From contig JACTNA010000016.1 of assembly GCA_014584315.1 (NCBI GenBank), positions 19,566 to 83,565 on the forward strand: a stretch of 64,000 nt of DNA. The letters run 5' to 3'. Origin of the DNA: Planctomycetota bacterium (GTDB lineage Bacteria > Planctomycetota > Phycisphaerae > Phycisphaerales > UBA1924). Under the pieces are notes generated by a model. It did no database searches, was not told where the DNA came from, and saw only the letters and a program-made list of their open reading frames with translations. Below, in pieces: positions 3,993 through 52,548 of this stretch (positions within the stretch are counted from its first letter, which is position 1; the number at the start of each line of letters is the position of its first letter). Made by a program: the position numbers and the translations under genes.

Positions 3993-4020
3993 CGGGAGTC
4001 TCCCGCCGCGTGGTCGCGGC

Positions 4021-8835: not shown

Positions 8836-8879
8836 GGTGGTTCCTTCCGCCGGGCGTCGCCGGCGCGAGGTGTTCGTGG

Positions 8880-10160: not shown

Positions 10161-10244
10161 GGGTGTCGCTCCGCTGGTCCGTCGTGTTCGTCGCCGCCGG
10201 GGACCGGCGGCGCGTGCGCGCTCCTCCGCGCGCACGCGGCCGCG

Positions 10245-11981
10245 TCAGTCCTCTTCGGCGATGGTCTCCCGCACCACCTCGTCGATCGTCGTCTGGCCCT
10301 CGTAAATAGCCAGGAGTCCCGCGTCGCGGAGCGAGCGCATCCCGCGTCGCTTCGCGTGGTCTCGCAGCACGCCGGTGCTCGCTTCCTGCATCACCAGTTC
10401 GCGCATCGCGTCGTCGATTTCCATGATTTCGAAGAGCGCCATCCGGCCCCGGTAGCCGGACTTGTGGCAGTTGTCGCACCCGCGCCCGCGGAAGAAGCGG
10501 CGGCCGCGGACGGTCTCCGGGGTCAGCGCGAGTTCCATCAGCTCCTCTTCCGCGGGGGTGTACTCCTCGCGGCACTTCGGGCAGATGGTCCGCACCAGCC
10601 GCTGCGCGACGATGCCTTCGAGGGTGGCCGTCAGGAGGAACGCCTCCAGCCCGAGGTCCACGAGACGGATGATCGAACTCGGGGCGTCGTTGGTGTGCAG
10701 GGTGGTCAGCACGAGGTGGCCCGTGAGCGACGCCTGCACGGCGATCTGGGCGGTCTCGAGGTCGCGGATCTCGCCGACGAGGATGATGTCCGGGTCCTGG
10801 CGGAGGAAACTGCGCAGGGCGCGGGCGAAGGTCAGCCCCACTTCCTCGTTCATCTGGCACTGGCACAGGCCGTCGATGTCGTACTCGACGGGGTCCTCGG
10901 CGGTCAGGATCTTGGTCTCGACGTCGTTGAGTTCGGCGAGCGCGGCGTAGAGGGTGGTGGTCTTGCCGGAGCCTGTGGGGCCGGTGACGATGACGATGCC
11001 GTTGGGCTTCTGGATGAGTTTGCGGAATCGGGCGAGGTCGTCCTCGCGGAAGCCGATGCGCTCGAGGCTGAGTTCGATGTTCGAGCGGTCGAGGACGCGC
11101 ATCACGACGCTCTCGCCCCACATCGTGGGGAGGACCGCGACGCGGAGGTCCACGGGGCTGCCGCCGACCATCAGTTCGATGCGCCCGTCCTGCGGGAGCC
11201 GGCGCTCGGCGATGTCCAAGTGCGACATGACCTTGATGCGGCTGGTGATCGCGGGGCCGAGGTGCTTGGGCGGCGGGACCATCTCGTACAAGACGCCGTC
11301 GATGCGGTAGCGCATCTTGAACTCGTTCTCGAACGGCTCGAAATGGATGTCCGAGGCACGGTCCTTGATGGCTTGCAGGAGCACGAGGTTGAGGAGTTTG
11401 ATGACCTGATTGTCCTCCGCCGCTTCGAGCACGGCGTCGAGGTCGATGGACGCCCCGCCCTTGTCGAGCGCCTTGAAGCGGTCGTCCGCGGCGAGGCCCG
11501 AGACCACGTCCATGACGGACTCGGTCTTGGAGTAGTGCTTCTGGATCAGGCTGTCGATGGCGGCCGAATCGGCGACCACCGCCTCGACGTTGAATCCCAT
11601 CAGGAGCCGGAGGTCGTCCACCGCCCGGAAGTTGTCCGGGCTTTTGAGGGCGATCTTCAGTCGCTTGCTCTTGGGGTTGAACTCGATGGGAACGACCTGG
11701 TAGGTCTGGGCGTTCTCCGAGGGGATTGCCGCGAGGGCTTCCTCGGGGATCTCGACCGAGGAGAGATCGACGTACGCCATGCCAGCCTGGCCGGCGAGGC
11801 CTTCCGCAACGTCCCGCTCGGAGCAGTAGCCGAGTTCGATCAGGAGTTGGCCGATTGGAACCCGGCGGGTCTTCTGGATGGCGAGGGCTTCGTGGACCTG
11901 CTCGCGTGTGACATGCCCGAGCTTGGTCAGGACTCGGCCGAGTTTGCGGCCCTTCAGTTCTGCCGGATCAATCACCGTCAC
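10245..11981 (-). CDS. gspE: GspE/PilB-family secretion ATPase with MshEN-type N-terminal domain
   Basis: GTG start with AGGAG 7-8 nt upstream. Walker A VTGPTGSGKTTTL. Tetra-Cys CPKC...CDNC. N-terminal KLGRVLTKLGHVTREQVHEALAIQ-KTRRV-PIGQLLIELGYCSERDVAEGLAGQ. Confidence 0.92.
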   Translation of the reverse strand: MTVIDPAELKGRKLGRVLTKLGHVTREQVHEALAIQKTRRVPIGQLLIELGYCSERDVAEGLAGQAGMAYVDLSSVEIPEEALAAIPSENAQTYQVVPIEFNPKSKRLKIALKSPDNFRAVDDLRLLMGFNVEAVVADSAAIDSLIQKHYSKTESVMDVVSGLAADDRFKALDKGGASIDLDAVLEAAEDNQVIKLLNLVLLQAIKDRASDIHFEPFENEFKMRYRIDGVLYEMVPPPKHLGPAITSRIKVMSHLDIAERRLPQDGRIELMVGGSPVDLRVAVLPTMWGESVVMRVLDRSNIELSLERIGFREDDLARFRKLIQKPNGIVIVTGPTGSGKTTTLYAALAELNDVETKILTAEDPVEYDIDGLCQCQMNEEVGLTFARALRSFLRQDPDIILVGEIRDLETAQIAVQASLTGHLVLTTLHTNDAPSSIIRLVDLGLEAFLLTATLEGIVAQRLVRTICPKCREEYTPAEEELMELALTPETVRGRRFFRGRGCDNCHKSGYRGRMALFEIMEIDDAMRELVMQEASTGVLRDHAKRRGMRSLRDAGLLAIYEGQTTIDEVVRETIAEED

Positions 11982-12177
11982 AGCACGGCTCCTGCGGATC
12001 GGAACGCCCCTGCGGGGTCATTCCCGATCGAATCCCTATTCGACACAATAACGGACCTGGATGCGACAGAACAAGCGAGATTGGCCCGCCTGTTCATTGC
12101 GACTCGTTGGTTTCTGAACACAGTGTTCGGCGACAGACCGAGTGAAGACTCCTAACACATTGCTATCGAACGTTGGT

Positions 12178-13296
12178 TCACTCGTTGCCGTCGTACTCAG
12201 TGTCCCACTCGGTGCGGCCGACGGTGCGGCCGAGGCGGTGGACCTTGTCGCGGAGATCCCCGGGGTTCTTGGACTTGTCGATCATCTCCTCGGCGGAGAT
12301 GATGCCCTTGGAATAGAGCGACCAGAGGTGGTCGTCGAGGAGTTGCATGCCGAACTTCTTGCCGGTCTGGATCATGGAGTCGATGCGGAAGGTCTTGGCG
12401 TCGCGGATGAGGTTCGAGATGGCCGGTGTAACCACCAGGAACTCGTAAGCGGCGACGCGGCCCGGGGTGTCGATACGGGCGAGGAGTTGCTGGCTCAGGA
12501 TCGCGATCATGGCGGTCGAGAGCTGGACACGGACCTGGTTCTGCTGGGAGACGGGGAAGGCGTCGACGACGCGGTCGATGGTCTTGGCCGCCCCGTTGGT
12601 GTGGAGGGTGGCGAAGACCAGGTGGCCGGTCTCGGCGGCGCGGATGGCGGCCTCGATGGTCTCGAGGTCGCGCATCTCGCCGACGAGGATGACGTCGGGG
12701 TCGGACCGGAGGACGCGGCGGAGGGCCTCGGCGAAACTGGGGACGTCATTGCCGACTTCGCGCTGGTTGACGATGGAGGTCTTGTGGCCGTGGTAGTACT
12801 CGATGGGGTCTTCCATCGTGACGATGTGGCGGTCGAGGTTGGTGTTGACGTAGTCGATCATCGTGGCGAGCGAGGTGGTCTTGCCTGAGCCGGTCGGGCC
12901 GGTCACGAGGAAGAGGCCCTGCGGGCGTCGGATGAGTTCCATGACGATGGGGGGCAGGCCGATCTGCTCGAAACTGAGGAGTCTGTTGGGGATCTGGCGG
13001 AGGACGATGGCGATGTCGCCCTTCTGGCGGAAGACGGAGACGCGGAATCGAGCCGCGTCGCCGTAGGCGAAGCCGAAGTCCGTTCCGCCGACTTCCTGGA
13101 GTTCCTGCTGGTTGCGCTCGGGGGTGATGGACTTCATCAGTCCGACCATGTCGTCGGAGTCGAGGACCTTGGTCTGGAGGTTGCGCAGGTGGCCGTGGAG
13201 ACGGATGGTGGGCGTTCGGTTGACGGTGAGGTGAAGGTCGCTTGCGCCGGTGCGGACGACGGTGTCGAGCAGCCGGTCGATCTGCATGGTGGACAT
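12178..13296 (-). CDS. pilT: Twitching-motility retraction ATPase PilT family
   Basis: MSTMQIDRLLDTVVRTGASDLHLTVNRTPTIRLHG..., Walker A GPTGSGKTTSL, AIRAAETGHLVFATLHTN. Start at ATG 13294-13296; the listed start at 13356 would overlap the upstream gene. Confidence 0.9.
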   Translation of the reverse strand: MSTMQIDRLLDTVVRTGASDLHLTVNRTPTIRLHGHLRNLQTKVLDSDDMVGLMKSITPERNQQELQEVGGTDFGFAYGDAARFRVSVFRQKGDIAIVLRQIPNRLLSFEQIGLPPIVMELIRRPQGLFLVTGPTGSGKTTSLATMIDYVNTNLDRHIVTMEDPIEYYHGHKTSIVNQREVGNDVPSFAEALRRVLRSDPDVILVGEMRDLETIEAAIRAAETGHLVFATLHTNGAAKTIDRVVDAFPVSQQNQVRVQLSTAMIAILSQQLLARIDTPGRVAAYEFLVVTPAISNLIRDAKTFRIDSMIQTGKKFGMQLLDDHLWSLYSKGIISAEEMIDKSKNPGDLRDKVHRLGRTVGRTEWDTEYDGNE

Positions 13297-13339
13297 CGGA
13301 ACGCTCCATCCGGCCGCCTCGTGCGGAGACGGCGGGTGA

Positions 13340-15082
13340 TCATGCCTGTTCGTCAACGACCTGTGCGACGCGGGCGATTTCGTCCATCGTCGTCACGCCG
13401 GCGAGGATTTTGAGGCGCCCGTCGCCGACGAGCGGGCGCATCCCGGCGGCGAGCGCCGCGCGGCGGAGGTCCGCGAGGGACGCGCCCTTGAACGCCATGT
13501 CGCGGATCTGCGAGTTCATGGACATCATCTCGAAGATGGCCTTTCGCCCTCGGAATCCCGTGTTGACGCAGTGCTCGCAGCCGACGGCCTTGTAGGCCTT
13601 GCCGAGCGCTTCCTCGGCCTTGAGGCCGACGAGACGGAGGAACTTGGGGTCGAGATCCTCCGGCTCTGCGAGTTTCTTGCACTTGGAGCAGAGGATACGG
13701 ATGAGGCGCTGGGCCATGATGGCCTGGATCGACGACGCCACAAGGAACGGCTTGATGCCCATGTCGACGAGGCGGGTGATGGCGGAGGGCGCGTCGTTGG
13801 TGTGCAGCGTGGAGAAGACGAGGTGTCCGGTGAGGGCGGCCTGGATGGCGATCTCGCCGACTTCGCGGTCTCGGATCTCGCCGACGAGGATGACGTTCGG
13901 CGCCTGGCGGAGCATGGAGCGGAGGATCGCCGAGAACGTCAGGCCGATGCCCTCGCGGACCTGGCATTGGTTGATGCCGTCGAAGTTGTACTCGACGGGG
14001 TCCTCGGCGGTGATGATCTTCTTGTCGGGCCGGTTGAGGACGTCGAGGGCCGAGTAGAGGGTGGTGGTCTTGCCGGAGCCGGTCGGCCCGGTGACGAGGA
14101 AGATGCCGTTGGGTCGCCGGATGATGCGGTTGAAGACGGCGAGGTTGTCGGCCTCGAAGCCGAGGTTTTCGAGTCCGATGCGGACCGAGTCGGGGCGGAG
14201 AATACGGAGGACGACGGACTCGCCGTGGTAGGCCGGACACGCGGAGACGCGGAAGTCGATCATGTGCTCATCGACGGGGAGTTTGATGCGGCCGTCCTGG
14301 GGGACTCGGCGTTCGGCGATGTTCATGCCGGCCATGAGTTTGGTGCGGCTGAGCAGGGCGTTCTGCATGCGCTTGGGCAGGTTGTCGCGTTCGATGCAGA
14401 CGCCGTCGATGCGGTAGCGCAGGCGGACGCGGTCGGCCATCGGCTCGATGTGGACGTCCGAGGCCCGCATCTTGACGGCCTCGGTGAGCATGCGGTTGCA
14501 GAGTTTGACGATCGGGGCATCGTCGGCGGCGACGTCGATGGACTTGTCGACGGAGCGGTCCACCGATCGGTCGATGGTGCGGTCGATGGAGTCGGTGACG
14601 AGGGACTCGCCGGGCTTCGGCTCTGCGGTGAGCGAGGCGGACGGGATGCCTCCGCCCGCGCCCTCGATGAACCGCCGGATCTGCGAGCGCGACGCGAGCC
14701 TGGGCTCGACCTCGACGTTGAGTCGGAAGCGGAGCATGTCGAGGAGTTCGAGGTCCATCGGGTCATGGATGACGAGTTGGAGGCGCCCGTTGGACTTGCC
14801 GATCGGCAGGATGAGGTGCTTGCGGACGAGGTCGTCGGGCACGAGTTTCAGGTCGACCTTGTCTCCGACGCCGTTGGCGGAGAGATCGACGAACTCCATG
14901 CCGAACTGGTTGGCGAGGGCCTTGGCGACCTGCTCTTCCTTGGCGAATCCGAGTTCGACGAGGGTCTCGCCGAGGCGTTTTCCGGCGCCGCGCGCCACCC
15001 CCACCGCCTGCTCGACATGTTCGGGGGAGGTCACGCCCCAGCCGACCAAGATCTCACCGAGTTTCTTCCGCGATCGTGCCAT
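13340..15082 (-). CDS. Second GspE/PilB-family assembly ATPase with MshEN-type N-terminal domain
   Basis: MARSRKKLGEILVGWGVTSPEHVEQAVGVA-RGAGK-RLGETLVELGFAKEEQVAKALANQ. Walker A VTGPTGSGKTTTL. CSKC...CEHC tetra-Cys motif. Confidence 0.9.
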   Translation of the reverse strand: MARSRKKLGEILVGWGVTSPEHVEQAVGVARGAGKRLGETLVELGFAKEEQVAKALANQFGMEFVDLSANGVGDKVDLKLVPDDLVRKHLILPIGKSNGRLQLVIHDPMDLELLDMLRFRLNVEVEPRLASRSQIRRFIEGAGGGIPSASLTAEPKPGESLVTDSIDRTIDRSVDRSVDKSIDVAADDAPIVKLCNRMLTEAVKMRASDVHIEPMADRVRLRYRIDGVCIERDNLPKRMQNALLSRTKLMAGMNIAERRVPQDGRIKLPVDEHMIDFRVSACPAYHGESVVLRILRPDSVRIGLENLGFEADNLAVFNRIIRRPNGIFLVTGPTGSGKTTTLYSALDVLNRPDKKIITAEDPVEYNFDGINQCQVREGIGLTFSAILRSMLRQAPNVILVGEIRDREVGEIAIQAALTGHLVFSTLHTNDAPSAITRLVDMGIKPFLVASSIQAIMAQRLIRILCSKCKKLAEPEDLDPKFLRLVGLKAEEALGKAYKAVGCEHCVNTGFRGRKAIFEMMSMNSQIRDMAFKGASLADLRRAALAAGMRPLVGDGRLKILAGVTTMDEIARVAQVVDEQA

Positions 15083-34233: not shown

Positions 34234-34923
34234 TCAGCGGGCCGAGCCGGAGATCGTGCGCGGGGCGGCGGCGGGGGCGCGGGTGTAGGCGATCTCCATC
34301 ATCTTGAACTCCTTGCCGGAGACGGGATCAGGCCCGAACATCTCGAGGGTCATGGAGTCCTTGCCGGTGCGGCGCTCGACCTCACGCATGATGGTGGGCT
34401 TCTTGGTGATCGGGCAGTTGTAGATGTACTTCCAGTTGAGCGTCTTGCCGTCCGAGTCCAGTTCGCCGCTTCCGGTCATCATGCCGGTGCCGAAGTTGTC
34501 GATCCAGGTTCCCTGGAACTTCTGCGAGACGTTGTCGAATCCGGCGATGCCGAAACCGTTGAACGCGCCCATGCCGGGCATCTCGCCGGTGGTCTCGCTC
34601 TTGACGAACCGCCCGTCCATGATCGAGGTGATGGTGGTGGTGCAGGTGCTCACGGCAGGTTCGGTGCCGGGCGCCATCCACATGGAGACCTTGCCGGTCC
34701 AGGTGCCGACGCCCTCCACGAGGTACTCGTGCATCTTGCCGGGCGTGGCGGCCTCGATGCAGGCCTGCATATCGGCCTCGCTCATCCCGCCGGGAACTGC
34801 CTGCTCGGGCTGCGCGGACGGCTTGATCGCCGCGGGCTTGCCGTTCTGCGTCGCCTGGCCGAGCGCGAACGAACACGACACCGCGATCACGCCGACGACC
34901 GTCACAAGTGACTTCGCGTTCAT
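34234..34923 (-). CDS. Secreted DUF1579-family protein
   Basis: GGAGG SD. Signal peptide MNAKSLVTVVGVIAVSCSFALG. HEYLVEGVGTWTGKVSMWM...MDGRFV...FGIAGFDNVSQKFQGTWIDN matches my memory of the DUF1579 pattern. Confidence 0.75.
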   Translation of the reverse strand: MNAKSLVTVVGVIAVSCSFALGQATQNGKPAAIKPSAQPEQAVPGGMSEADMQACIEAATPGKMHEYLVEGVGTWTGKVSMWMAPGTEPAVSTCTTTITSIMDGRFVKSETTGEMPGMGAFNGFGIAGFDNVSQKFQGTWIDNFGTGMMTGSGELDSDGKTLNWKYIYNCPITKKPTIMREVERRTGKDSMTLEMFGPDPVSGKEFKMMEIAYTRAPAAAPRTISGSAR

Positions 34924-35092
34924 CTGAACCTCCGGAACGAATGCTGTGTGGCGCGGCCGTCAACCCAACGCGGGTGCGGACGCCGTGGCATCAGGATAGC
35001 ACGACGAACCACGCCGGGTCGATCCCCAGAGGACCGCGGAATCGCCACGGTCGGTGTGCGTTCGCGGCTGACGATCGACGAACAGGCCGTGG

Positions 35093-38062
35093 CTAGGGGC
35101 AGCCGGCGGACCATGCGTTCAGGAAGGCGATGAAGTCGATGGTGTTGACGGTCCCGTCGCGGTTGAAGTCCGCCAGCGGGTCCGCGACGACGAATGCGTT
35201 GAGGAAGGTGACGACGTCAATGGTGTTGATGACCAGGTCGCCGTTGACGTCGGGGCTGCCGGGGCCGCCGGGGTGCGTGCCCGAGTCGGCCGGGTCGGTG
35301 CAGACGTCGAGTTCGTCGCGGTCGAGCCAGCCGTCGCGGTCGCGATCGATGCCGAGACGTGCGGCGGAGCCCGCGACGACGACGGTGAAGGTGATCTCCC
35401 CGCCTCCGGGCTGCGTGAAGGCCACGATGTCGCTCGTGGTGTGCTGTTGAACCGCACGATCGGACTGGAAGGCGCCCGCGCCGAGGTAGTGCCAGCCGCG
35501 CTGTTCGCCGGCGACGCGTCCTTTGGCGATCATGCCGATGCGGGGCGAGGCGTCCGAGAGCGCGAGCAGTTGTGTCAGGCGAATGATGGCGTTGCCGTCC
35601 CCGGGATCGGCGACGGTCACCTGCATGCCGACGGCGGCGTGCGTGTCGAGGCTCGGCGGGCCGGGCGGGACGAGCATGTTGTTGTTCGAGCCGGGCGGGA
35701 GGTCCGAGCCTGAGAGACAGAGCATGAAGGCGACGAGGTTGGCGATCTCCTGGTCGTTCTGCACGTTGAACGCCGGCTCGGCGATGAAGCGGGCGATGGA
35801 GTCGATGCTCCCGTCGTGCAGATACCCGAAGCCCGCGAGGCTCTCGGTCTGGGTCATCTCCATGCCGACTTTTTCGTGGAGGTTGCGCAGGTGGGGAATC
35901 TTGGTGGAACGGTTGGTGGTGCCGTCCACCGAGACGAGCGCGAGATGGCGTTCGCCGAGGGGTCCGGGCGGGATCTGCACGAACTGGTTGCCCTGCCACG
36001 TGACGTCCGGCCCCGCGCCGGTGGGGAGTGTGTGGCACGTCACGCAGGCGAACGCGCCCTGGTCGAGGCGGCGCGCGGTGGAGCGGTAGAGGTCGCGTCC
36101 GGCGACGGCGTTGCCGTTCGGCAGGGGCTGGCCGGCGGGCGCGAACCGGCCCGGCGTGTAGTGGCCCGGGAGCGGCAGGTTCGTCGGCAGCGTGTTGTCG
36201 GCGTTGCGGAAGGGATTGGGCGGGAACTGGACGGTCGCGAGGAAGTCCTCGAAGTCCTGCATCTGCTGCGGGGTCAGGGGCGCGTCCGCGCCGTTCAGCC
36301 CGACGAAGGCGGGGTTGAACTGCTCGATGCCGTCGCGGTCGCCGCGCCAGTGGTGCGGTTCGAGGCCGATGATGTGCTGGAGCGTCTGGGTCGTCATCGG
36401 CCCCTTCATCGGGTGGTGCGGGAGGAAGGGCAGCGGCGTGGTGGGCGGCGCAAGGCCGGTGATGCCCGCGCCGAGATTACGGTTCGTCAGCGGGTCGAGT
36501 TGGCCGGCGGGGTTGCCGAGGTCCCACGCGAGACGGTCGAGGCGCGCGTCGACGTGGCACGACGCGCACGAGGCCTGCCCGAGGCCGCTCGTGGCGTGCG
36601 TGTCGTAGAGGTGGACGCGACCGCGTCGAACGACGGGGGGGGTGGGATCGAAGAAGGGGACGCGGAGCAGCTCCGACTCCGCGACGAGGTCGACGACCGA
36701 GACCGTGCCCTCGAAGCGGTTGAGCACGTAGAGCACGCCGCGCGATTCGTCGATGGCGAGGCCGGCCGGACCCGCGCCGACGGGGATGGTCTCGGTCAGG
36801 CCCGCGCGGTTGCCGGCGGGGTCGATGACGATCAGGTTGTTCGAGCCCATGCCCGCGACATAGCCGAGCGAGCCGTCCGCGCGCCACACGATCGCGCGTG
36901 GATCGCCGATGGAGCGGACGCGCTCGACCATCGGGATGCGGTTCGTGGAGTAGTCCAGGTGCGGGTTGAGGTCGACGATCCACGGGTCGTCGGGCGCGGC
37001 CGGATCGACCAGGGCGGCGTGAACGCGGACGAACCGCCCGGCGACGTTCGGCTCGAACCGGACCTCGTTGATGGCGTCGGTGCCGATGACCGTGACAAGC
37101 CCGGTGGCCGGGTTCACGCCGACCGCCATGCACGCGTTCATCAGCCGACGGACGTACGACACCGAGAGTGAGTTCGCATCGATCACGGCGAGATCACGGT
37201 CGGGAACGTCCCAGCCGACCGGCCTGCCGGAGAGCGCGGCGGACGAGCCGGAGACGAAGTCGGTCCAGTCCGCCCCGTTGTCGTCGAGCCATCGGCCTTG
37301 GTCGTCCTTCTTGACGATGAGGCCAACGCCGGGGGGCGGCGGAAGGTTCGGGTTCAGGGGCGGCTCGAACCCGTTGCCCGAGTTCGGCGGCGGGTTCAGG
37401 CCTGCGTACGGGCCGCCCGGGTGATTCACGACGTTGGGCGGGAAGTTGATCGTTGTCTGGACTTCGATGCCGCCGCCGAGGAGGGTTGAGCCGTTGCCTG
37501 ACTCGAAGACGGCGACGTAGACCGTCGAGCCGTCGGGGCTGACGGCCATCGCACGCGGGTCCTCGCCGAGGATCGGCAGTTGCGCGAGTGGAGCGGAGGG
37601 ATTGGCGGGGTCGAAGACCTGCACGACGTTGACCTGCGAGCACGTCACGAACGCCCGCAGCGGCTGCCCCGCGAAGACCACGTCGTACGGCTCGTCGTCG
37701 GTGTCGATCGTGCGGACGACGGTCATGGTGTTGAGATCGACGATGCTGATGGAGTCGGAGACGTGGTTGACGACCCAGGCCTCGTCGGCAGTACGGGCGC
37801 GCACGGTGACAGGGTCGATGCCAACGGGGACGGAGCCGATCCAGGAAGGAGCCGGGCCGGTCGCGTCGAAGACCTCCAGCCGGGCGTCGGGGGTGTTGAC
37901 CACCAGGAGGAGCGAGCCATCGGGAGTGAGTTCGAGCGGGTGGCAGGGCGGGTTCTCCCAGTTGGGGAACCACGGGATGGCGCGGTCGGCCATCTGGCCG
38001 CACGACACGGATGCCACCACCCCCACTACCGCGGCACGCACAACGGTCCACACGATCGACAT
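35093..38062 (-). CDS. Secreted YVTN beta-propeller / di-heme cytochrome c peroxidase-like / GC-type dockerin-tail protein (989 aa)
   Basis: Internal ATG 38060-38062 (signal peptide MSIVWTVVRAAVVGVVASVSCG). YVTN-like repeats (DPRAMAVSPDGSTVYVA, GAGPAGLAIDESRGVLYVLN). Two CxxCH motifs (CASCH, CVTCH). C-terminus DVNGDLVINTIDVVTFLNAF...DFNRDGTVNTIDFIAFLNAWSAGCP. Confidence 0.85.
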   Translation of the reverse strand: MSIVWTVVRAAVVGVVASVSCGQMADRAIPWFPNWENPPCHPLELTPDGSLLLVVNTPDARLEVFDATGPAPSWIGSVPVGIDPVTVRARTADEAWVVNHVSDSISIVDLNTMTVVRTIDTDDEPYDVVFAGQPLRAFVTCSQVNVVQVFDPANPSAPLAQLPILGEDPRAMAVSPDGSTVYVAVFESGNGSTLLGGGIEVQTTINFPPNVVNHPGGPYAGLNPPPNSGNGFEPPLNPNLPPPPGVGLIVKKDDQGRWLDDNGADWTDFVSGSSAALSGRPVGWDVPDRDLAVIDANSLSVSYVRRLMNACMAVGVNPATGLVTVIGTDAINEVRFEPNVAGRFVRVHAALVDPAAPDDPWIVDLNPHLDYSTNRIPMVERVRSIGDPRAIVWRADGSLGYVAGMGSNNLIVIDPAGNRAGLTETIPVGAGPAGLAIDESRGVLYVLNRFEGTVSVVDLVAESELLRVPFFDPTPPVVRRGRVHLYDTHATSGLGQASCASCHVDARLDRLAWDLGNPAGQLDPLTNRNLGAGITGLAPPTTPLPFLPHHPMKGPMTTQTLQHIIGLEPHHWRGDRDGIEQFNPAFVGLNGADAPLTPQQMQDFEDFLATVQFPPNPFRNADNTLPTNLPLPGHYTPGRFAPAGQPLPNGNAVAGRDLYRSTARRLDQGAFACVTCHTLPTGAGPDVTWQGNQFVQIPPGPLGERHLALVSVDGTTNRSTKIPHLRNLHEKVGMEMTQTESLAGFGYLHDGSIDSIARFIAEPAFNVQNDQEIANLVAFMLCLSGSDLPPGSNNNMLVPPGPPSLDTHAAVGMQVTVADPGDGNAIIRLTQLLALSDASPRIGMIAKGRVAGEQRGWHYLGAGAFQSDRAVQQHTTSDIVAFTQPGGGEITFTVVVAGSAARLGIDRDRDGWLDRDELDVCTDPADSGTHPGGPGSPDVNGDLVINTIDVVTFLNAFVVADPLADFNRDGTVNTIDFIAFLNAWSAGCP

Positions 38063-38201
38063 CGCTTTCGCCCTCCGAAGACCGAACAGACCGCCCGAAC
38101 GCGGGCGGGGGCCCACACAATAACGCACCAAGGCGGCGGCGCATACATCGGTGCCCGAGAATTGGGAACACGAAGGATGTCGGCTCTGGTAGGCTGAGCG
38201 C

Positions 38202-38525
38202 ATGACCGACGACCCCGCCCCCATTGCCCCGGTCCGGGTTCTTCAGTTGTACTTCCGGGTTCGTCCGCCGTGGAAACTGGCGGCGGACGGGGTGCTGTGC
38301 TTCGTCGCCTACGGCGTGTTCTCGCACCTGTGGGTCGCGTTCTCCGACGCGGCCACGTTCGACGACCGGGCGAGGCCGTCGGCGAATCTGCTCGCCGCGC
38401 TGACCAGGCGGGCGACGGTGATGCAGTCGATCGCCAGTGTGATCTATTACCTCGGCCCCGCGCTGTTCTTGTGGGCGGGCGTGCGGCTGATCGCTGAAGC
38501 GCTGCGGCCTCGCGAGTCGGACTGA
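38202..38525 (+). CDS. Small membrane protein, hypothetical (107 aa)
   Basis: ATG start and high GC3. Two hydrophobic segments (GVLCFVAYGVFSHLWVAF; IASVIYYLGPALFLWAGV). Confidence 0.5.
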   Translation: MTDDPAPIAPVRVLQLYFRVRPPWKLAADGVLCFVAYGVFSHLWVAFSDAATFDDRARPSANLLAALTRRATVMQSIASVIYYLGPALFLWAGVRLIAEALRPRESD

Positions 38526-44795: not shown

Positions 44796-45098
44796 TCAAT
44801 GCGGGGGGCGGGTGTTGAGGCGGTCGAGCCTCGAGGTAGACCGGGCATGACGGGCGCGGATTCGGGCTGCGATCAGCATGATTGAACCAGTGAGAAGCAC
44901 GGGCACACCCGCGGCCCCGATGAGGACACCTCGGAGCATGGCGGGGATGACCGCCTCTTCGCGGCCCTCGGGCTGGCCGAGAGGGTCGGCCATGATGTCC
45001 GAGTAGAGGGAGCCGAGTTCGCGGAGGGCGGTGCCGATGCCGACAAGGACAATCCCTCCCCCGATGAGCAGCAGCAACCAGGCGAGCGTCCGCTTCAC
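44796..45098 (-). CDS. Small two-TM membrane protein, hypothetical (100 aa)
   Basis: In-frame GTG 45096-45098. KRTLAWLLLLIGGGIVLVGIGTAL ... GVLIGAAGVPVLLTGSIMLIAA. The N-terminal part of the listed ORF is Pro/Ser-rich junk. Confidence 0.45.
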   Translation of the reverse strand: MKRTLAWLLLLIGGGIVLVGIGTALRELGSLYSDIMADPLGQPEGREEAVIPAMLRGVLIGAAGVPVLLTGSIMLIAARIRARHARSTSRLDRLNTRPPH

Positions 45099-45289
45099 GG
45101 GCGGATGGTAGAGGAGCCGGTCAGACGGGCAACCCTGATCCGGGAGGAGGGGGCTTGCGTTCGAGGGGGGGCTTCGTGTAGAGTGTGGCGGTTGGTCACG
45201 GAGGGGCGTGCTTCCCTGGTTTGGACGACGGGAGCCGCTGTTTGGGTACGAAGCGTGGCGGAACATGTTCGCTGCTGGCCAGCCGCGCG

Positions 45290-45949
45290 GTGTGCTCGCG
45301 GGCGTTTTCGCTTGTCGAGTTGATGGTCGTGATCGGGATCGTGACGATCCTGGCGGGGCTGATGATGCCCGCGCTGGCGGGGTCGATCTCGCAGAGTCGC
45401 CTGACGCGCGACATGGCGCTGCTCCGCTCGCACGCGGCGACGGTGGCGATGTACTGCACGGACTACGACGGGGTGTACCCGCTGGCGAACGCGGACCCGT
45501 GGTTTGCGGCGCAGTCGTGGGGCGAGGCGGTGCTCAAGGCGGGGCACTTCAAGTCGGAGAGCGAGATCGACCCGGACGTGCACCGGCGCGGCAAGTACCC
45601 GTCGATCGCGCTCTCGATGTGCATGGTCTATGACGCCGCGTTGATGCGGCCGGGCCACACGGTGCCGATCGAGCAGCAGAGAACGAGCGCGGTGCGGATG
45701 GAGCAGGTGCTGTTCCCGTCGTCGAAGGGGCTGCTGTTCAAGGTGCACAACGGCAATCCGAACCCGAGCGACGGCGGCGTTCAGTTCTGCTGCATCGAGC
45801 CGTGGGTGTTTCCCGTGTCAATGGCGGACGGCTCGGCAAAGGCCGGCAACTACTTGGACTTCAACGGCGGTCTTCCACCCTACATCGAAAACGAGATCGG
45901 GATGCCCGTGTACTCGACATGGTTCGGCGTGAGAGGAATGGACCGTTAG
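45290..45949 (+). CDS. Prepilin-type N-terminal cleavage/methylation domain protein (pseudopilin-like, DUF1559-like)
   Basis: In-frame GTG 45290 gives MCSRAFSLVELMVVIGIVTILAGLMMPALAGSISQSR. C-terminal FPVSMADGSA resembles the DGS end motif of planctomycete pseudopilin-like proteins. The start is uncertain. Confidence 0.7.
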   Translation: MCSRAFSLVELMVVIGIVTILAGLMMPALAGSISQSRLTRDMALLRSHAATVAMYCTDYDGVYPLANADPWFAAQSWGEAVLKAGHFKSESEIDPDVHRRGKYPSIALSMCMVYDAALMRPGHTVPIEQQRTSAVRMEQVLFPSSKGLLFKVHNGNPNPSDGGVQFCCIEPWVFPVSMADGSAKAGNYLDFNGGLPPYIENEIGMPVYSTWFGVRGMDR

Positions 45950-45977
45950 CCCAGCAACGGGCAGAGAGGGACGAAAG

Positions 45978-46427
45978 ATGAAGGCATTACTTCGGGTGAT
46001 GACGACGGCAAGTGCCGTGTTGTTCGGCATCGGCATGATGGCACAGGTTGCCCCGGTCTGTTGCCGTTACTTCTACGAATGGCCGCCCGAACTGCAGGGC
46101 CCGGAAGGTCCCTGCTCTGGAGACATGGCGCTCGTGTGTGAAACGGGGTCGAACAATGCGCCGCCGGAAGACCCGCTTTCCGAGATTCGACGCCCGGGAT
46201 GGCGTCCGGCTGAGTGCTGCGCGTACGTTCTCGGCGGTGGCGGCGTCTTCATTCGAAGCGCCTGTGACGAGCCTCCGACTCCCGATTCGATCTTCATCGG
46301 GCAACTCCCCGACGGCACCTGCTGCTGGGCGCATGTTCCCATCTCCCATCACCAGGAGTGCTACGATCAATCGTTCGGCGTAATGAAGTGCGTGAACTCG
46401 TGCGGGGAGAATCAAAGCGAGAACTGA
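45978..46427 (+). CDS. Secreted 12-cysteine protein (149 aa), hypothetical
   Basis: ATG with GAGAGGGA SD. Signal-like MKALLRVMTTASAVLFGIGMMAQVAP. 12 Cys including three CC pairs (VCC, ECC, TCC). GC is lower than in the surroundings. Confidence 0.6.
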   Translation: MKALLRVMTTASAVLFGIGMMAQVAPVCCRYFYEWPPELQGPEGPCSGDMALVCETGSNNAPPEDPLSEIRRPGWRPAECCAYVLGGGGVFIRSACDEPPTPDSIFIGQLPDGTCCWAHVPISHHQECYDQSFGVMKCVNSCGENQSEN

Positions 46428-46431
46428 AGGG

Positions 46432-47400
46432 ATGCTCAAACTCGTATCACCGTCGACCAACCGACTCATGGTGTTGTCGTCCATTGCTCTGACGATGCTT
46501 GTTCTCGCATCGGTATCGGGAGCCCGGCAACCCCTCCAAGCGGCAGTCTCTGAGAACAATCTCCGAGAGTTCCTCTCGCTCATCGACTCGACGCTGCCCG
46601 AGAGAGGGAGTCTCGTGGCGGTCTATGAGCCGGCATCGACGACCTCGTACGGAAGGTACACCGTCGGCTTCGATGCGGCGTCGGGCGCGTGGTTCATCGC
46701 TTCATGGAAGTCGTCGATTGGGCGCTCGCCGGATGGTGTGTCGTACAAATCGGATTCCAGAGGCGATACACTTCAGGATTGGCCTGGAGGAGGCACCGTC
46801 GGACCCATAGCGGTCGCCGATTACTTCCCCTTTGCCTATCTCGCGTTCTTTCGAGAGCAACCCACTGCGATCACGTCGCTCTCCCGAACACCCTCAGGTG
46901 GCTGGGTCGTCAGGTACGTCCAACCCGGGCTGGAAGGGATGCCCGAGAACGTGGTCGAGATAGACCCTGACGGGCTTCCCATTCGACGATGGAGAGAAGA
47001 TCCCAAGGATCGCCGTGAGTCGGTCTTCGACTACGCAGACACCTCTCCCGCCGGTTTCCCGATCGTGCGAGGCTGGGGCGCTTCGCCAATTCCACAGGTG
47101 ACCGGCCCTACCCTGGCTCACGTCGAGTTCCACAAGAGCGGCAACCTCGCCCTGTTCGACCGAGTGTCGGTTCACAGCACGGAGATTGATAATCGGGCCA
47201 TCGTTCAAACGAGACGCCAAGCGAACATCGCCGGCTTCTCTCGCAACGAGGATGGCACGTGGAACCCGCCGGACCGCACGAAGGTCAAACCCTACTCGGG
47301 GGACGACCTGCGGGCGTACCGCTGGCCGCTCGTGCTGGCGGGTGTGACGCTTGTTGCGCTGGCGGGGTACGAGATCGTCCGTCGCCGGCGGGGCGCGTGA
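46432..47400 (+). CDS. Secreted protein with C-terminal TM anchor, hypothetical (322 aa)
   Basis: N-terminal MVLSSIALTMLVLASVSGA. C-terminal WPLVLAGVTLVALAGYEIVRRRRGA. Starts 4 nt after the upstream stop. Confidence 0.6.
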   Translation: MLKLVSPSTNRLMVLSSIALTMLVLASVSGARQPLQAAVSENNLREFLSLIDSTLPERGSLVAVYEPASTTSYGRYTVGFDAASGAWFIASWKSSIGRSPDGVSYKSDSRGDTLQDWPGGGTVGPIAVADYFPFAYLAFFREQPTAITSLSRTPSGGWVVRYVQPGLEGMPENVVEIDPDGLPIRRWREDPKDRRESVFDYADTSPAGFPIVRGWGASPIPQVTGPTLAHVEFHKSGNLALFDRVSVHSTEIDNRAIVQTRRQANIAGFSRNEDGTWNPPDRTKVKPYSGDDLRAYRWPLVLAGVTLVALAGYEIVRRRRGA

Positions 47401-47412
47401 GGGATTGACGCC

Positions 47413-47901
47413 GTGACCGACTTCTCTCGCGTGCGCACGACAGGAGCGGGAGTGCTGGTCGCGGCCGGCGCGGTCGTCTTTCTCGTCTCGGGGTTCCGGC
47501 ACTTCGCGGAGATGCGACATTTCTCCGACCTGCTCATCAAGCACGATCTGGTCCCCGAGGCGATCGCGGGCGCAACGGCGTGGGGCGTCTCGGGCGCGGA
47601 GGTTGTCGTCGGGGTCGTCGCGGCATGGTGCCTCGTGACCGACCGCGGTGGACGGATCGCGCTCGGCGCGCTCGCCGTGGCCTCGCTCATGGGGGCGATG
47701 GCGGTCTACGCGACCGCCCTCGTCTTCTGGCCGCCGCCTACGCCCGTCCCCTGCGGGTGCGGCGTCGGCGCGAGCCTGCCCGTCGAGGACTGGACGCCGA
47801 TCGCCATGCGCAACGGTCTGCTGACGGCTGTCATGGCCGCGGCGGCGTTCGTGGCGAATCTGGGACGGCGCGGTGGGAGCGGAACGCCTGCATCGGCGTG
47901 A
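47413..47901 (+). CDS. MauE/DoxX-like redox-associated membrane protein
   Basis: GTG start. Four hydrophobic helices and PVPCGCGVG (MauE-family CGC motif). Confidence 0.6.
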   Translation: MTDFSRVRTTGAGVLVAAGAVVFLVSGFRHFAEMRHFSDLLIKHDLVPEAIAGATAWGVSGAEVVVGVVAAWCLVTDRGGRIALGALAVASLMGAMAVYATALVFWPPPTPVPCGCGVGASLPVEDWTPIAMRNGLLTAVMAAAAFVANLGRRGGSGTPASA

Positions 47902-47923
47902 CCGGAGGTTCGGTCGTGGGGCT

Positions 47924-48625
47924 TCAGTTCATTTCGAAGTAGCGCGGCGCGATCAGCCGAAGCACGCCCTCGCTCAGGAAGTCGGTGACACTCCAGCCGA
48001 TGGTCCAGAGCACGCCTCCGCCGTAGAAGAAGACCATGGCGAAGAGGATCAGCCCGACGACCGGAGCGTTGCCGTGCGAAATGAGCCGGTCATAGGGTGC
48101 GTAGACGTTGGCGAGGATGCGCGATCCGTCGAGGGGCGGGATCGGCAGGAGGTTGAGGACGACCAGAACCGCGTTCAAGCCGCAGCCGAGCATCAGGAAC
48201 GTCTGCACGTTGTCGTAGAGCGTGATGGAGCCGAGGGAGATGCTGTCGCTCGTCCATCCGCCCGCGAGGGCGATCCACAGCCCGAGCGCCGTGCCGCAGA
48301 CGAGCGAGAGGCCGACGTTCATCGCCGGCCCGGCGGCGGACACGATCAGGTCGTCCCGGCGCCCCCGGAAGCGGCTGGGGTTCACGGGCATCGCGCCCCA
48401 CGCGATGCCGAACAGGAAGAACGCGATCAGGCCCGGCGTCCCGATGTGGACGGCCGGGTTCCAGGTCATGTGGCCGAGTTCGATCGGCGTGCGGTCGCCG
48501 CAGCGGATGGCGGCCCAGCCGTGGCCGAGTTCGTGCAGGGTGATCGAGAAGACGAGCCAGAAGACCCACGAGACGAGATAGACGGGGCTGTGCTGCCAAG
48601 CGTCGGCGAGCCACCAACCGTCCAT
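47924..48625 (-). CDS. Site-2 protease family (M50) membrane metalloprotease
   Basis: ITLHELGHGWAA (HExxH) and NLLPIPPLDGSRI (LDG motif). Polytopic. Confidence 0.88.
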   Translation of the reverse strand: MDGWWLADAWQHSPVYLVSWVFWLVFSITLHELGHGWAAIRCGDRTPIELGHMTWNPAVHIGTPGLIAFFLFGIAWGAMPVNPSRFRGRRDDLIVSAAGPAMNVGLSLVCGTALGLWIALAGGWTSDSISLGSITLYDNVQTFLMLGCGLNAVLVVLNLLPIPPLDGSRILANVYAPYDRLISHGNAPVVGLILFAMVFFYGGGVLWTIGWSVTDFLSEGVLRLIAPRYFEMN

Positions 48626-49617: not shown

Positions 49618-50808
49618 TCACGGGCCGACGAAGGCGTCGTCGGGGCCGTCGGGCAGTTCCCGCCCGGTCAGTCGGCCGCCGGACAACTGGTGGAGCACCC
49701 GCTCGAGCGACCTGGGGAGCCAGATGTTGTCGCCGTTGGGGAGGACGGGGCTGGCGTGCCACTCGGTCGCCCCGTCGTTGAAGAGCAGGTGCTGGCCTCG
49801 CCCGCCGTGGTTCGGCGTCGAGGCTTCGGGGTTCACCCGCTCGCCGCGGACGGCCCTCTGCACGACGGGGGATCGATCGGCCATGACGAGGACGCGGGTC
49901 CGATCGAGCCAGCGCGGCGTCTGGGGTCCGGAGATGACGCGGTAGGAGTACGACACCTCGTCGAGCGTCCGCCAGTCACGGTCTTCGGGGCTTGCGGGCA
50001 CGGTGGGTGCGTTCGGGTTGCCGGGGCAGGCGAGGCTTGAGAGCGAAAGGTACTTCTCGCGGGCGAGGGTGTAGAGGTTCGCGGAGTTGGAGCGGTCGGG
50101 GCCTTTGCCGACGTTCCACCAGGTGCCCCCTCCGTAGGAAGCGGTGACCATCGGGAGTGCGTTCTGGTTGAGGCTGGCGTAACCGCTCATGGCGTTGGCC
50201 GCGCCGTGCAGGTTGGCGGCGCAGGCGATGCGGCGGGCCTGATCTCGGACGGACGACAGGACGGGCCAGAGCACGGACGCGCCGATGAGCAGCACGGCGG
50301 CCACGGAGGCAACGTCGGCGAAACGGACGCGGCGCCGCGCGGCCCGCTCGAAGGCAAGGCTCTCGGCGTCGCGGTCGATCGTCGCCTGCACGAGGGCGAG
50401 CGTGCGATCGACGAGCGCCTCGCGGTCGCCAGCGTCGCAATGGCAGACGGCGTCCGCGAGCGCGCGGTGGCGTTCGGCCCTCGCCCGCATCGCCTGGGGG
50501 ACGAGCGAAGGATCGCCGTCGGCCTCGAGCCAGGCGTCGAGGGCCGCGGCATCGTCGGCGCAGAGGTGCGGCTCCAGGCCGAGCGCGTGTGCGAGCGTGT
50601 CCTCGACCAGCCTTGCGGATCCTGCGATCCCGGCATCGCGCAGGGGGTCGAGCAGCGCGACGATCCGTTCGGCGCGCCCCCGATGTTCGTCGGCGACCGC
50701 TTCAAGGTCGAATCCTGCATCCACGAGCGCGTCCAGCGCGGCGGCGTCCGCGGCGCTCAACGCCGGAGCGTGTTCACCATCGGCCGAGGCGTTTCGCGCG
50801 TCCTTCAC
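49618..50808 (-). CDS. Anti-sigma factor candidate with pseudopilin/DUF1559-like periplasmic domain
   Basis: GTG 50806-50808 forms a GTGA overlap with the ECF sigma stop. Single TM VASVAAVLLIGASVLWPVL, followed by SSVRDQARRIACAANLHGAANAMSGYASLNQNALP and C-terminal NHGGRGQHLLFNDGATEW (H-X10-DG). Confidence 0.75.
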   Translation of the reverse strand: MKDARNASADGEHAPALSAADAAALDALVDAGFDLEAVADEHRGRAERIVALLDPLRDAGIAGSARLVEDTLAHALGLEPHLCADDAAALDAWLEADGDPSLVPQAMRARAERHRALADAVCHCDAGDREALVDRTLALVQATIDRDAESLAFERAARRRVRFADVASVAAVLLIGASVLWPVLSSVRDQARRIACAANLHGAANAMSGYASLNQNALPMVTASYGGGTWWNVGKGPDRSNSANLYTLAREKYLSLSSLACPGNPNAPTVPASPEDRDWRTLDEVSYSYRVISGPQTPRWLDRTRVLVMADRSPVVQRAVRGERVNPEASTPNHGGRGQHLLFNDGATEWHASPVLPNGDNIWLPRSLERVLHQLSGGRLTGRELPDGPDDAFVGP

Positions 50809-51413
50809 CGGTCGTCCCCGTTCTGCGAAGCCTTCCACTTTCGGGCGAACGCGGCCACGGCGGCGTGCAGGCGCGACTTGACGGTGCCGAGCGGGATGCC
50901 GAGGTCGTCGGCGATCTGGGCGTAACTGAGCCGCTGGAAGTAGGCCAAGAGCAGGATCTCCCGCAGCGGCAGGGGCAGGTCGTCGAGGGCACGCTGCACC
51001 AGCCTGTCGCGTTCGCTCGCGTCGGCGGCGGCGTCCGGAGCGGGCACGTCGATCTCCATCAGATCGACGAACTGAACCCCCCCGCGCTCTTCACCGCCCC
51101 CCGCCCTTCCGACGGGGGCCGACAGTTCCATCTCCTGCCGGCGTCCCTTCCTACGCAGGTAGTCGCGGGCCTTGTTCGCGGCGATCGTGAATAACCAGGG
51201 ACGGAACCGCCGATCCACGTCGAACGAGTCGGCGGAGAGGTGAATCTGGAGAAAGGTCTCCTGGAAAACGTCGTCCGCGGCGGCCCGGTCGCCGGTCAGG
51301 CGGATCAGAAACCGGAGCAGGTCGTCGTGGTGGCGTTCGATGAGGGTCCGAAAGGCGTCCGACTCGCCCGTGCGGTAGGCCTCGACCAGTTGCTCATCGG
51401 TTCTGGGGTCCAA
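50805..51413 (-). CDS. ECF-type RNA polymerase sigma-70 factor
   Basis: TTG start. Region 2 DVFQETFLQIHLSADSFD..FRPWLFTIAANKARDYLRRK. Region 4 LSYAQIADDLGIPLGTVKSRLH. Confidence 0.88.
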   Translation of the reverse strand: MDPRTDEQLVEAYRTGESDAFRTLIERHHDDLLRFLIRLTGDRAAADDVFQETFLQIHLSADSFDVDRRFRPWLFTIAANKARDYLRRKGRRQEMELSAPVGRAGGGEERGGVQFVDLMEIDVPAPDAAADASERDRLVQRALDDLPLPLREILLLAYFQRLSYAQIADDLGIPLGTVKSRLHAAVAAFARKWKASQNGDDR

Positions 51414-51536: not shown

Positions 51537-51845
51537 TCAGACGACTTCGCCGACGGTACGGGCGAACCGGACCCCGGTCTCCGGCCCGAACCGCTCCGCG
51601 CCTTCGGCCCGGAGCGCGGGGGCGTGGTTGGCGAGGTAGTCGTCGAGGGCCTGCCGGGTGGGGAACACATAGCGCGTCTCGACGCGGATGGGGTCGGGCG
51701 GGTCGGTGACCCGGACGATCATCGCGCTGTGTGCCCCGGCGGCGACGACCGCGTCCACATGGCCGTCGCGGAGCCAGTCGAGATAGCGTTCGGCCGTCGG
51801 GCGGTCCGGGAGCGTCGCGGTTACGGTGTAGACGATGGCGGACAT
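51537..51845 (-). CDS. DUF4286-family protein
   Basis: MSAIVYTVTATLPDRPTAERYLDWLRDGHVDAVVAAG...YVFPTRQALDDYLANHAPALRAEG. Confidence 0.7.
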   Translation of the reverse strand: MSAIVYTVTATLPDRPTAERYLDWLRDGHVDAVVAAGAHSAMIVRVTDPPDPIRVETRYVFPTRQALDDYLANHAPALRAEGAERFGPETGVRFARTVGEVV

Positions 51846-51924
51846 GCCCCGAGCCTACCGCTCCCGGCCGCCGGACGGCGGCGAGGGGGCAATTCGGTCG
51901 GGCCTGGGGCGTTCTGCGGACGGC

Positions 51925-52548
51925 ATGCCACCCGCCTTGGAGCGAAGCGACCCGGCGACGGGCGTCGCCCCTGACGACGGGCGGCTGGCCGAGGTTCTGG
52001 CCGCGGCTTCACGCGGCGATGGGGACGCCTGGCGCGAGATCGTGGACCTGTACGCCAGGCGAGTGTTCGCGCTGGTCCACAGCCGGTGTCGTCGGCCCGA
52101 TCTGGCCGAGGAGGTCACGCAATCCGTGTTCGCCACAGTCGCCGCCAAACTCTCCCGAGGGGGGTACACCGAGCGGGGCCGCTTCGAGTCGTGGCTCTTC
52201 CGCGTGGCGATGAACCGCGCGCGTGACGAGATGCGCCGGCTGGCCCGGCAGGCGACGCCGACGGACCCGTCGGCGGTTGCGGCGGCCGTGGACCGCGCGC
52301 GGGAGAACGGGGAACGGACGAGCGACGACGGCTCGCTCGATGCGCTGCGGCGTGCGATGTCGAGCCTTCCCGCGGCCGACCGGGAGGTGGTCGAGTTGCG
52401 GCACCACGGCGGGCTGAGTTTCAGGCAGATCGCGGACCTCGTCGGCGAGCCGATGGGCACGCTGCTGGCCCGCCACCACCGGGCGTTGCGGAAGCTGCGG
52501 TCGATGATCGAACGCGATGCACCCGCGGACGAGGAGCAGACTCGATGA
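51925..52548 (+). CDS. ECF-type RNA polymerase sigma-70 factor
   Basis: ATG 51925; the listed start at 51835 would overlap the divergent gene. GDGDAWREIVDLYARRVFALV, FESWLFRVAMNRARDEMRR, LSFRQIADLVGEPMGTLLARHHRALRKLR. Confidence 0.85.
   Translation: MPPALERSDPATGVAPDDGRLAEVLAAASRGDGDAWREIVDLYARRVFALVHSRCRRPDLAEEVTQSVFATVAAKLSRGGYTERGRFESWLFRVAMNRARDEMRRLARQATPTDPSAVAAAVDRARENGERTSDDGSLDALRRAMSSLPAADREVVELRHHGGLSFRQIADLVGEPMGTLLARHHRALRKLRSMIERDAPADEEQTR

Follow-up and report, generated by a model that had tools for sequence, protein, structure and literature searches.

A conserved four-gene cassette, a probable envelope operon, of Phycisphaerae-type planctomycetes with a MauE-family membrane protein and a cysteine-rich exported protein

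The present study concerns a stretch of 64,000 nucleotides (nt) from contig JACTNA010000016.1 of a Planctomycetota bacterium (hereafter, the window) and, within it, four consecutive genes at positions 45290-47901. With moderate confidence, we favor the view that these genes form a conserved envelope operon of Phycisphaerae-type planctomycetes, in which the fourth product, a membrane protein of the MauE family, works preferentially for the proteins encoded with it. The co-conservation shows the cassette to be a true unit. Genes 1-3, which encode a pilin-like protein, a cysteine-rich exported protein, and a LolA-like anchored protein, make up its constant core, and MauE accompanies them in seven of the eight readable lineages. 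The features of the locus are as follows.

45099-45289, no strand: intergenic region between gene 1 and the divergent gene of a 100-aa membrane protein (44796-45098, − strand)
45290-45949, + strand: gene 1, type IV pilin-like (pseudopilin-like) protein, 219 aa, by its N_methyl match, transmembrane (TM) segment, and vicinal CC
45978-46427, + strand: gene 2, exported protein, predicted all-beta, 149 aa, 12 Cys, by its signal sequence and AlphaFold2 model
46432-47400, + strand: gene 3, Cys-free protein of predicted LolA-like fold with a C-terminal anchor, 322 aa, by AlphaFold2 and Foldseek
47413-47901, + strand: gene 4, four-helix membrane protein of the MauE family, 162 aa, by PF07291 and hydropathy
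47905-47925, + strand: weak terminator-like hairpin from a pattern scan only (seven pairs, three of them G-C), not evidence of function

The four open reading frames (ORFs; 45185/45290-45949, 45978-46427, 46432-47400, and 47413-47901) are all on the + strand and are separated by 28, 4, and 12 nt, in agreement with the coordinates of a first-pass annotation made from the letters of this DNA. A purine-rich stretch resembling GAGGGA or AAGGGA can be read 5′ of genes 2, 3, and 4, and the junctions in relatives range from −35 to +79 nt, with frequent 4-nt overlaps. Judged by this layout, genes 1-4 are arranged as one operon. The intergenic region 45099-45289 presumably carries its promoter and leader and may hold regulatory sites; its DNA is 75-89% identical to four orthologous loci, a level equal to that of the flanking coding DNA, and contains long invariant runs. 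A promoter pattern scan gave no sigma-70-like site in this region or inside the cluster. An RNA element in the conserved leader was also considered and dropped, since an Rfam search of 45099-45289 returned no family and the predicted RNA fold was no better than that of shuffled sequences (z = −1.3). The hairpin at 47905-47925 stands directly 3′ of gene 4, ahead of the convergent gene of an M50 peptidase.

The close relatives of this locus are metagenome-assembled Phycisphaerales and Phycisphaeraceae genomes, and in this close clade the co-occurrence of the four genes is not separable from general synteny. A full HMMER search with gene 2 against 1.84 billion representatives gave 50 clusters at E < 1e-3, nearly all of 108-165 aa, the exceptions being two short fragments and a 954-aa repeat protein that was set aside as a false positive. 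A word-indexed protein search under-reports such relatives, with only two matches for gene 2 and eight for gene 4, all at least 70% identical. Eight distant contexts were readable, several of them on short contigs, and partner homology there was assessed by hmmsearch with hidden Markov models (HMMs) built from the close orthologues.

The order gene 1-2-3-4 recurs at loci L011, L013/L014, L017, and L018/L019, where the MauE of L011 is a contig-end fragment. The contig of L012 starts at gene 2 and has genes 2-4, and that of L010 ends within gene 3. In the window, the cassette is flanked on one side by genes for an M19 peptidase, CoA-transferase subunit B, and the 100-aa membrane protein and on the other by those for the M50 peptidase, L20, L35, and an ECF sigma factor. 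L013/L014 and L018/L019 have an S10 peptidase and RecA upstream; downstream, genes for a 921-aa protein and RNase HII follow in L013 and L014, and the next gene of L018/L019 is cut by the contig end. Thus, where the first-pass annotation had supposed a functional module, the search for homology and co-occurrence with MauE-like genes finds the genes kept together, in unchanged order, under at least three unrelated sets of flanks and with junctions often overlapping by 4 nt. MauE lies 3′ of gene 3 in seven of the eight lineages with downstream DNA, a count that includes the frameshifted homologue of L015 and the L011 fragment, which reads CGG in place of CGC. As a negative control, 80 metagenomic loci with generic pilin-like genes, taken from a metagenome scan in which the gene 1 alignment picked the generic pilin motif, contained no homologue of gene 2, 3, or 4. 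A scan of GTDB genomes with gene 3 gave three loci only, all of one clade.

The product of gene 4 matches PF07291 at 53.7 bits (gathering cut-off 27; E 3.4e-14) over profile positions 9-127 of 128, and precomputed matches to the same family exist for the fourth gene of L002, L003, L005, L012, L013, L017, and L018. The MauE assignment of the first-pass annotation therefore passed the HMM test, and its PCGCG motif is present, the sequence in gene 4 reading VPCGCGVG. Hydropathy gives four TM segments (residues 10-28, 58-76, 87-105, and 130-148), and the CGC, at residues 114-116 (47752-47760), falls in the TM3-TM4 loop. This loop is probably periplasmic, because the Arg-rich N-terminus, the TM2-TM3 loop, and the C-terminus orient the protein by the positive-inside rule. 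Both the CGC and a Glu of TM2 (Glu63) are invariant in all complete cassette MauE sequences.

A preprint of March 2026 reports that two MauE homologues from two phyla restore motility and alkaline phosphatase in E. coli ΔdsbB and that the CXC of MauE is the active site, either Cys being essential (bioRxiv 10.64898/2026.03.05.709764). Quinone is predicted there to lie between the MauE helices, near a conserved Lys of TM1 and Glu of TM2; MauE is found to be far commoner than methylamine dehydrogenase (MADH), and the authors see it as a generalist that oxidizes a thioredoxin-fold carrier. Since the CXC that defines MauE is present in gene 4 and in the expected loop, disulfide generation at the periplasmic face is its most likely activity. 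At the end of TM1, this clade has Arg29, where L011, L012, L013, L017, and L018 have the Lys of the preprint consensus. The residues after the CGC are G-V-G in this clade, L-F-G in L012, and G-F in L017, compared with a conserved F-G in the preprint description.

Searches with the window MauE found cassette-type relatives only, at least 70% identical, and a tblastn search of cassette MauE against plasmids gave no plasmid-borne MauE. By these sequence criteria, gene 4 represents a distinct MauE subfamily that travels with the cassette. One orthologue, P0015, which is 83% identical to gene 4, has the NCBI label 'Leptolyngbya sp. PLA2'; the label probably comes from a mis-binned or mis-named metagenome-assembled genome, as the sequence and its cluster mates are Phycisphaerae-type. 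Two further homologues are irregular. At L015 (2233-2600), MauE is split across two frames and gene 3 is seemingly extended to 359 aa; this contig has 1.8x coverage, and the split is either an assembly error or a pseudogene. At L011 (2290-2703), the motif is P-C-G-G, where all others have P/S/G-C-G-C, and the contig ends soon after. The deviation may be a sequencing error or, alternatively, mark a variant without the second active-site Cys.

Compared with mau clusters and the MauE-MauD pair, gene 4 is alike in its four helices, in the CGC of the TM3-TM4 loop, and in the TM2 Glu. Likewise, MauE here shares one operon with a small exported protein of 10-12 Cys. It differs in its TM1 residue (Arg for Lys) and in the G-V-G that takes the place of F-G behind the CXC. 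MauA, MauB, MauD, and MauG are lacking in the cassette and within about 7 kb around it in four genomes. The partners encoded with this MauE are instead one pilin-like protein, one protein with a new Cys-rich fold, and one that resembles LolA.

The first-pass annotation had described gene 2 as a secreted protein of 149 aa with 12 Cys and three vicinal CC pairs, and our counts agree. Its signal sequence is followed almost at once by an invariant CC, and the pairs stand at residues 28-29, 80-81, and 115-116. Compared with the window protein, 37 relatives have 25-73% identity; among them nine Cys never vary and a tenth almost never does, and the number of Cys past the signal sequence is even in 36 of the 37. 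Furthermore, C81 and C128 form a lineage-specific pair that raises the count from 10 to 12; both are present in six sequences and both absent from 31, with no exceptions. A second optional pair, at alignment columns 105 and 116-123, is gained and lost together in the same way. This pattern indicates that the Cys of gene 2 are disulfide partners, because gain and loss in pairs is not expected of metal ligands or free thiols. The AlphaFold2 model, made with the alignment of these relatives, is a confidently predicted all-beta protein with a pLDDT of 88.5, most of residues 27-142 being above 95. Foldseek gave nothing credible for this model in the PDB (best E 0.03, TM-score 0.31) or BFVD, and profile searches gave no match in Pfam, NCBIfam, or PDB sequences. 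No Trp is invariant across the relatives.

Gene 1 belongs to the pilin-like class by its N-terminus only. Its GTG at 45290 gives a leader of 5 aa before A|FSLVEL; the frame is open back to 45185, and the orthologues start at a GTG 15 nt further upstream, where this window has CTG. Pfam N_methyl matches gene 1 at 21.9-22.4 bits against a cut-off of 21.2, which upholds the earlier pseudopilin-like call, and all eight family members match. A gene 1 profile also aligns with the N-terminal helix of solved type IV pilins (residues 1-58, E 2e-6). The family shares the motif (R/K)x(A/G)|F(S/T)L(V/I)EL, with Glu at +5; its form in the window is SRA|FSLVELMVV, and the single TM segment (residues 8-26) forms a hydrophobic alpha-1 helix. 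In its short leader, Phe at +1, Glu at +5, and hydrophobic alpha-1, gene 1 thus resembles type IV pilins and type II secretion (T2S) pseudopilins. In contrast to these, it has a C-terminal domain without a family match and a location 30 kb from the assembly genes, not adjacent to them, and its residue at −1 is Ala, as in four relatives, where Gly is usual. This C-terminal domain, of about 150 aa with four Cys including a vicinal FCC, matched no family, and none of the eight members matched PF07596 (DUF1559) at E ≤ 1. The vicinal CC occurs in every lineage except L016 and L015, and in L011, L013, and L018 these are the only Cys of the mature protein.

The assembly genes constitute a T2S system (T2SS)/type IV pilus (T4P)-like set at 5736-15082 (− strand). 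This set has three N_methyl pseudopilin-like genes of 357, 359, and 317 aa, the first just below the Pfam cut-off; the two products checked, of 357 and 317 aa, have no Cys. It also encodes a platform protein (T2SSF) and three T2SSE ATPases, of which two have MshEN domains and the third is shorter and PilT-like, and it adjoins a 1598-aa ORF without a Pfam match (3-4796). Gene 1 may have a role in a pilus or in secretion. Another observation on gene 1 comes from L016 (2391-4441), the sole cassette without MauE after gene 3 and also the sole one with a complete gene 1 that lacks any Cys; there the vicinal CC of gene 1 is replaced, and gene 2 retains 10 Cys. This single case hints that the gene 1 CC and MauE go together.

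Gene 3 opens with a signal sequence and ends in a TM helix (residues 298-316; 47323-47379) plus RRRRGA; it contains no Cys, as is true of most orthologues. Its AlphaFold2 model (pLDDT 78.6) predicts a LolA-like open beta-barrel at about residues 40-235 (46549-47136) and then a long helix. Foldseek matched the model to LolA (8cgm, 8chx, 1iwl), LolB, DUF1329 (4z48), and RseB at E values of 1.9e-5 to 1e-2, with target-normalized TM-scores of 0.43-0.52 for LolA, LolB, and DUF1329 and of 0.22-0.27 for RseB. Gene 3 is therefore predicted to share with these proteins an open barrel with a lid helix. It differs from them in having no sequence-family match (none in Pfam, with nine members scanned, NCBIfam, or PDB sequences) and in being tethered by a C-terminal TM helix and Arg-rich tail, rather than being a soluble carrier or a lipoprotein. 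Both the LolA-like fold and the absence of Cys had been missed in the first-pass annotation. Among the close relatives, the last ~70 residues hardly change, whereas the remainder is 46-68% identical, with the LolA-like domain diverging. The DNA of this tail does carry synonymous differences, and hence the constraint acts on the protein. This suggests that the tail contacts a conserved partner, for which gene 1 and gene 4 are candidates.

Taken together, we propose the following arrangement. Gene 4 would be a DsbB-like oxidase whose periplasmic CGC loop is re-oxidized by membrane quinone and passes disulfides outward. Gene 2 would be the main client, a small all-beta protein with five core disulfides (six in this lineage), and the vicinal Cys pair of gene 1 is a probable second client. 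Gene 3, with its predicted LolA-like fold and hydrophobic cavity, may act as a tethered holder or scaffold and so retain the partners at the membrane beside MauE; having no Cys, it is excluded from thiol chemistry. The product is probably a disulfide-rigidified complex, periplasmic or pilus-associated, of which the exposed parts (genes 2 and 3) evolve fast. The oxidative-folding module put forward in the first-pass annotation is in line with the co-conserved unit, with the replacement of DsbB by MauE homologues through their CXC, and with the Cys pairing of gene 2; the foreign origin suggested beside it is not supported. Two other suggestions of that annotation stay speculative: thioether or other crosslinks, for which the cassette encodes no modifying enzyme, and delivery by the pseudopilin-like protein. 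Type IV pilins carry a C-terminal disulfide, and Gram-positive pilins need MdbA/VKOR. The arrangement proposed here would resemble the DsbB-DsbA and VKOR systems, in which a quinone-linked membrane oxidase supplies pilin-type and other exported proteins with disulfides, but its putative oxidase belongs to the MauE family and shares an operon with the proposed clients, and the operon has no soluble carrier.

Several observations weigh against this dedicated role. No thioredoxin-fold partner, of the DsbA or MauD type, was found in the cassette or within about 7 kb, and genes 1-3 have neither a thioredoxin-type Pfam match nor such a CXXC. Gene 4 departs from the MauE consensus in its Arg for the TM1 Lys and its G-V-G for the usual F-G. 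On the 4.8-kb contig of L016, an unrelated gene in convergent orientation comes after genes 1-3 and MauE is absent, although this MauE-less locus and the CGG-bearing L011 are single metagenomic contigs in which sequence errors are possible. The strongest rival, which we regard as unlikely but by some way the best of the alternatives, takes gene 4 for a general housekeeping equivalent of DsbB that oxidizes a DsbA-like carrier encoded elsewhere. Genes 1-3 would then be a separate module of the envelope or a pilus and a heavy user of the disulfides, and the place of MauE behind them would reflect shared regulation or history and not a dedicated partnership. Besides the missing thioredoxin-fold partner and the MauE-less triad of L016, this explanation agrees with the preprint's MauE, a generalist working via thioredoxin-fold proteins. 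It also agrees with the housekeeping-like character of gene 4, which is 83-85% identical among orthologues, where genes 2 and 3 are 46-73% identical, and has native GC content and GC content at third codon positions (GC3). However, MauE stands directly behind gene 3, often with a 4-nt overlap, in lineages with unrelated flanks. Furthermore, it belongs to a cassette-bound subfamily whose relatives found were all of the cassette type. The two explanations are not mutually exclusive.

A bolder version of the dedicated role, which we consider improbable, has MauE acting without any thioredoxin-fold carrier. It would either directly oxidize operon partners presented by the tethered gene 3 or work through the invariant N-terminal CC of gene 2 and the vicinal CC of gene 1, which would make up a novel disulfide relay or a covalent bond that fastens a cystine-stapled cap to a pilin-like stalk.

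Very doubtful, in our judgment, is a module for a lipid or other hydrophobic ligand, with gene 3 as the carrier of a lipid, a lipoprotein, or quinone, MauE as a quinone-binding partner of the DoxX clan, and gene 2 as a binder of metal or ligand. The LolA/LolB/DUF1329 fold predicted for gene 3 usually encloses acyl chains, and MauE is predicted to bind quinone. However, the CGC that is invariant in all complete cassette MauE sequences is a thiol-redox site, the paired gain and loss of Cys in gene 2 points to disulfides and not metal sites, and the membrane tether makes gene 3 ill suited to shuttle.

Base composition had led the first-pass annotation to describe a lower-GC four-gene cluster and to suggest foreign origin or relaxed codon bias. 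Its hand counts for the three 60-nt lines at 46441-46620 were exact (53.3, 60.0, and 65.0%), and the window mean is 0.699. The GC content of 45290-47901 is 0.644, against a standard deviation of 0.022-0.024 around that mean, and 1.8% of non-overlapping windows of the same size are as low. The description fits genes 2 and 3 (45978-47400), which at 0.616 lie below every non-overlapping stretch of equal length in the 64 kb. It does not fit gene 4 (0.718), and gene 1 has 0.650. In GC3, genes 2 and 3 rank below all other called ORFs, with 0.72 against 0.77-0.95 (45 ORFs in total; gene 4, 0.86). The second-lowest stretch (11210-12632, 0.625) lies around the end of a T2SSE ATPase gene and the PilT-like gene, and low GC is therefore not unique to the cassette.

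A horizontally acquired island, marked as foreign DNA by this low GC, is nevertheless highly improbable, even though genes 2 and 3 are the extreme of the window in both GC and GC3. Genomes in which the identity of gene 3 is as low as 46-80% carry the orthologous cassette in one common chromosomal position, between the same neighbors. GC3 is reduced in all same-site orthologues of gene 3 and most of gene 2, and in the distant cassettes L013 and L015 gene 2 again has the lowest GC3 of its cassette. Genes 1 and 4 have native composition, and the Pfam annotation of the flanks includes no mobile-element or tRNA genes. The amino-acid identity to orthologues is 70-88% for gene 1, 48-73% for gene 2, 46-68% for gene 3, and 83-85% for gene 4, compared with 90-94% for the M50 peptidase. 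Fast protein evolution would thus account for the relaxed codon use of genes 2 and 3, which is the simpler of the two readings first offered. The GC dip, as its recurrence in orthologues argues, is an old property of two fast-evolving genes and not a recent import.

Least credible of all is a gene 2 that would be a cofactor-bearing or crosslinked small subunit, like the MADH light chain or a ribosomally made crosslinked peptide, with MauE serving its maturation: although MauE was first defined by the maturation of the 12-Cys MADH light chain with its tryptophan-derived quinone, and gene 2 here likewise has 12 Cys, gene 2 matches neither Pfam nor NCBIfam families, the MADH light chain included, nor PDB sequences, and we rejected homology to that chain. 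Its family core is 10 and not 12 Cys with no invariant Trp, its model is a 120-residue beta protein without a match to solved structures including the MADH light chain, and the cassettes and their surroundings contain neither MauB, MauG, or MauD nor a radical-SAM or other modifying enzyme.

In the neighborhood, at 49618-51413 (− strand), the gene of an ECF sigma factor overlaps that of a downstream 406-aa protein without a Pfam match, which is probably its anti-sigma factor; the pair is kept in all syntenic relatives. A likeness of gene 1 to this 406-aa protein was considered and was not significant. A second ECF sigma gene lies at about 51835-52548, and no link from these genes to the cassette was found. 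At 34234-38224 (− strand), a 1043-aa exported protein has two CxxCH heme-binding motifs (CASCH and CVTCH), weak beta-propeller matches, and a dockerin/EF-hand-like tail, and it adjoins a DUF1579 protein of 229 aa. An anti-phage defense function was also considered for the locus, and PADLOC gave no match.

The pieces of the proposed mechanism are known, whereas their combination is undescribed. Among the disulfide-forming enzymes of bacteria, MauE was very recently proposed to rank second in frequency, and the preprint assumes a thioredoxin-fold intermediary. If MauE is merely a general oxidase here, the remainder of the cassette is an ordinary though unannotated envelope operon. The cassette would join MauE to a heavy client, with five to six disulfides in about 120 residues, in a translationally coupled operon without such an intermediary. 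Therefore, it offers a compact, testable system for asking whether MauE acts directly or via a new kind of partner. If a carrier-free MauE were true, its disulfide pathway or pilus architecture would be new to the literature and would consist of two families, those of genes 2 and 3, that have no known relatives. Besides, the cassette brings two exported families (gene 2, without a family or structural match, and gene 3, without a sequence family) and a new pilin-like subfamily to the envelope biology of Phycisphaerae, which is almost unstudied.

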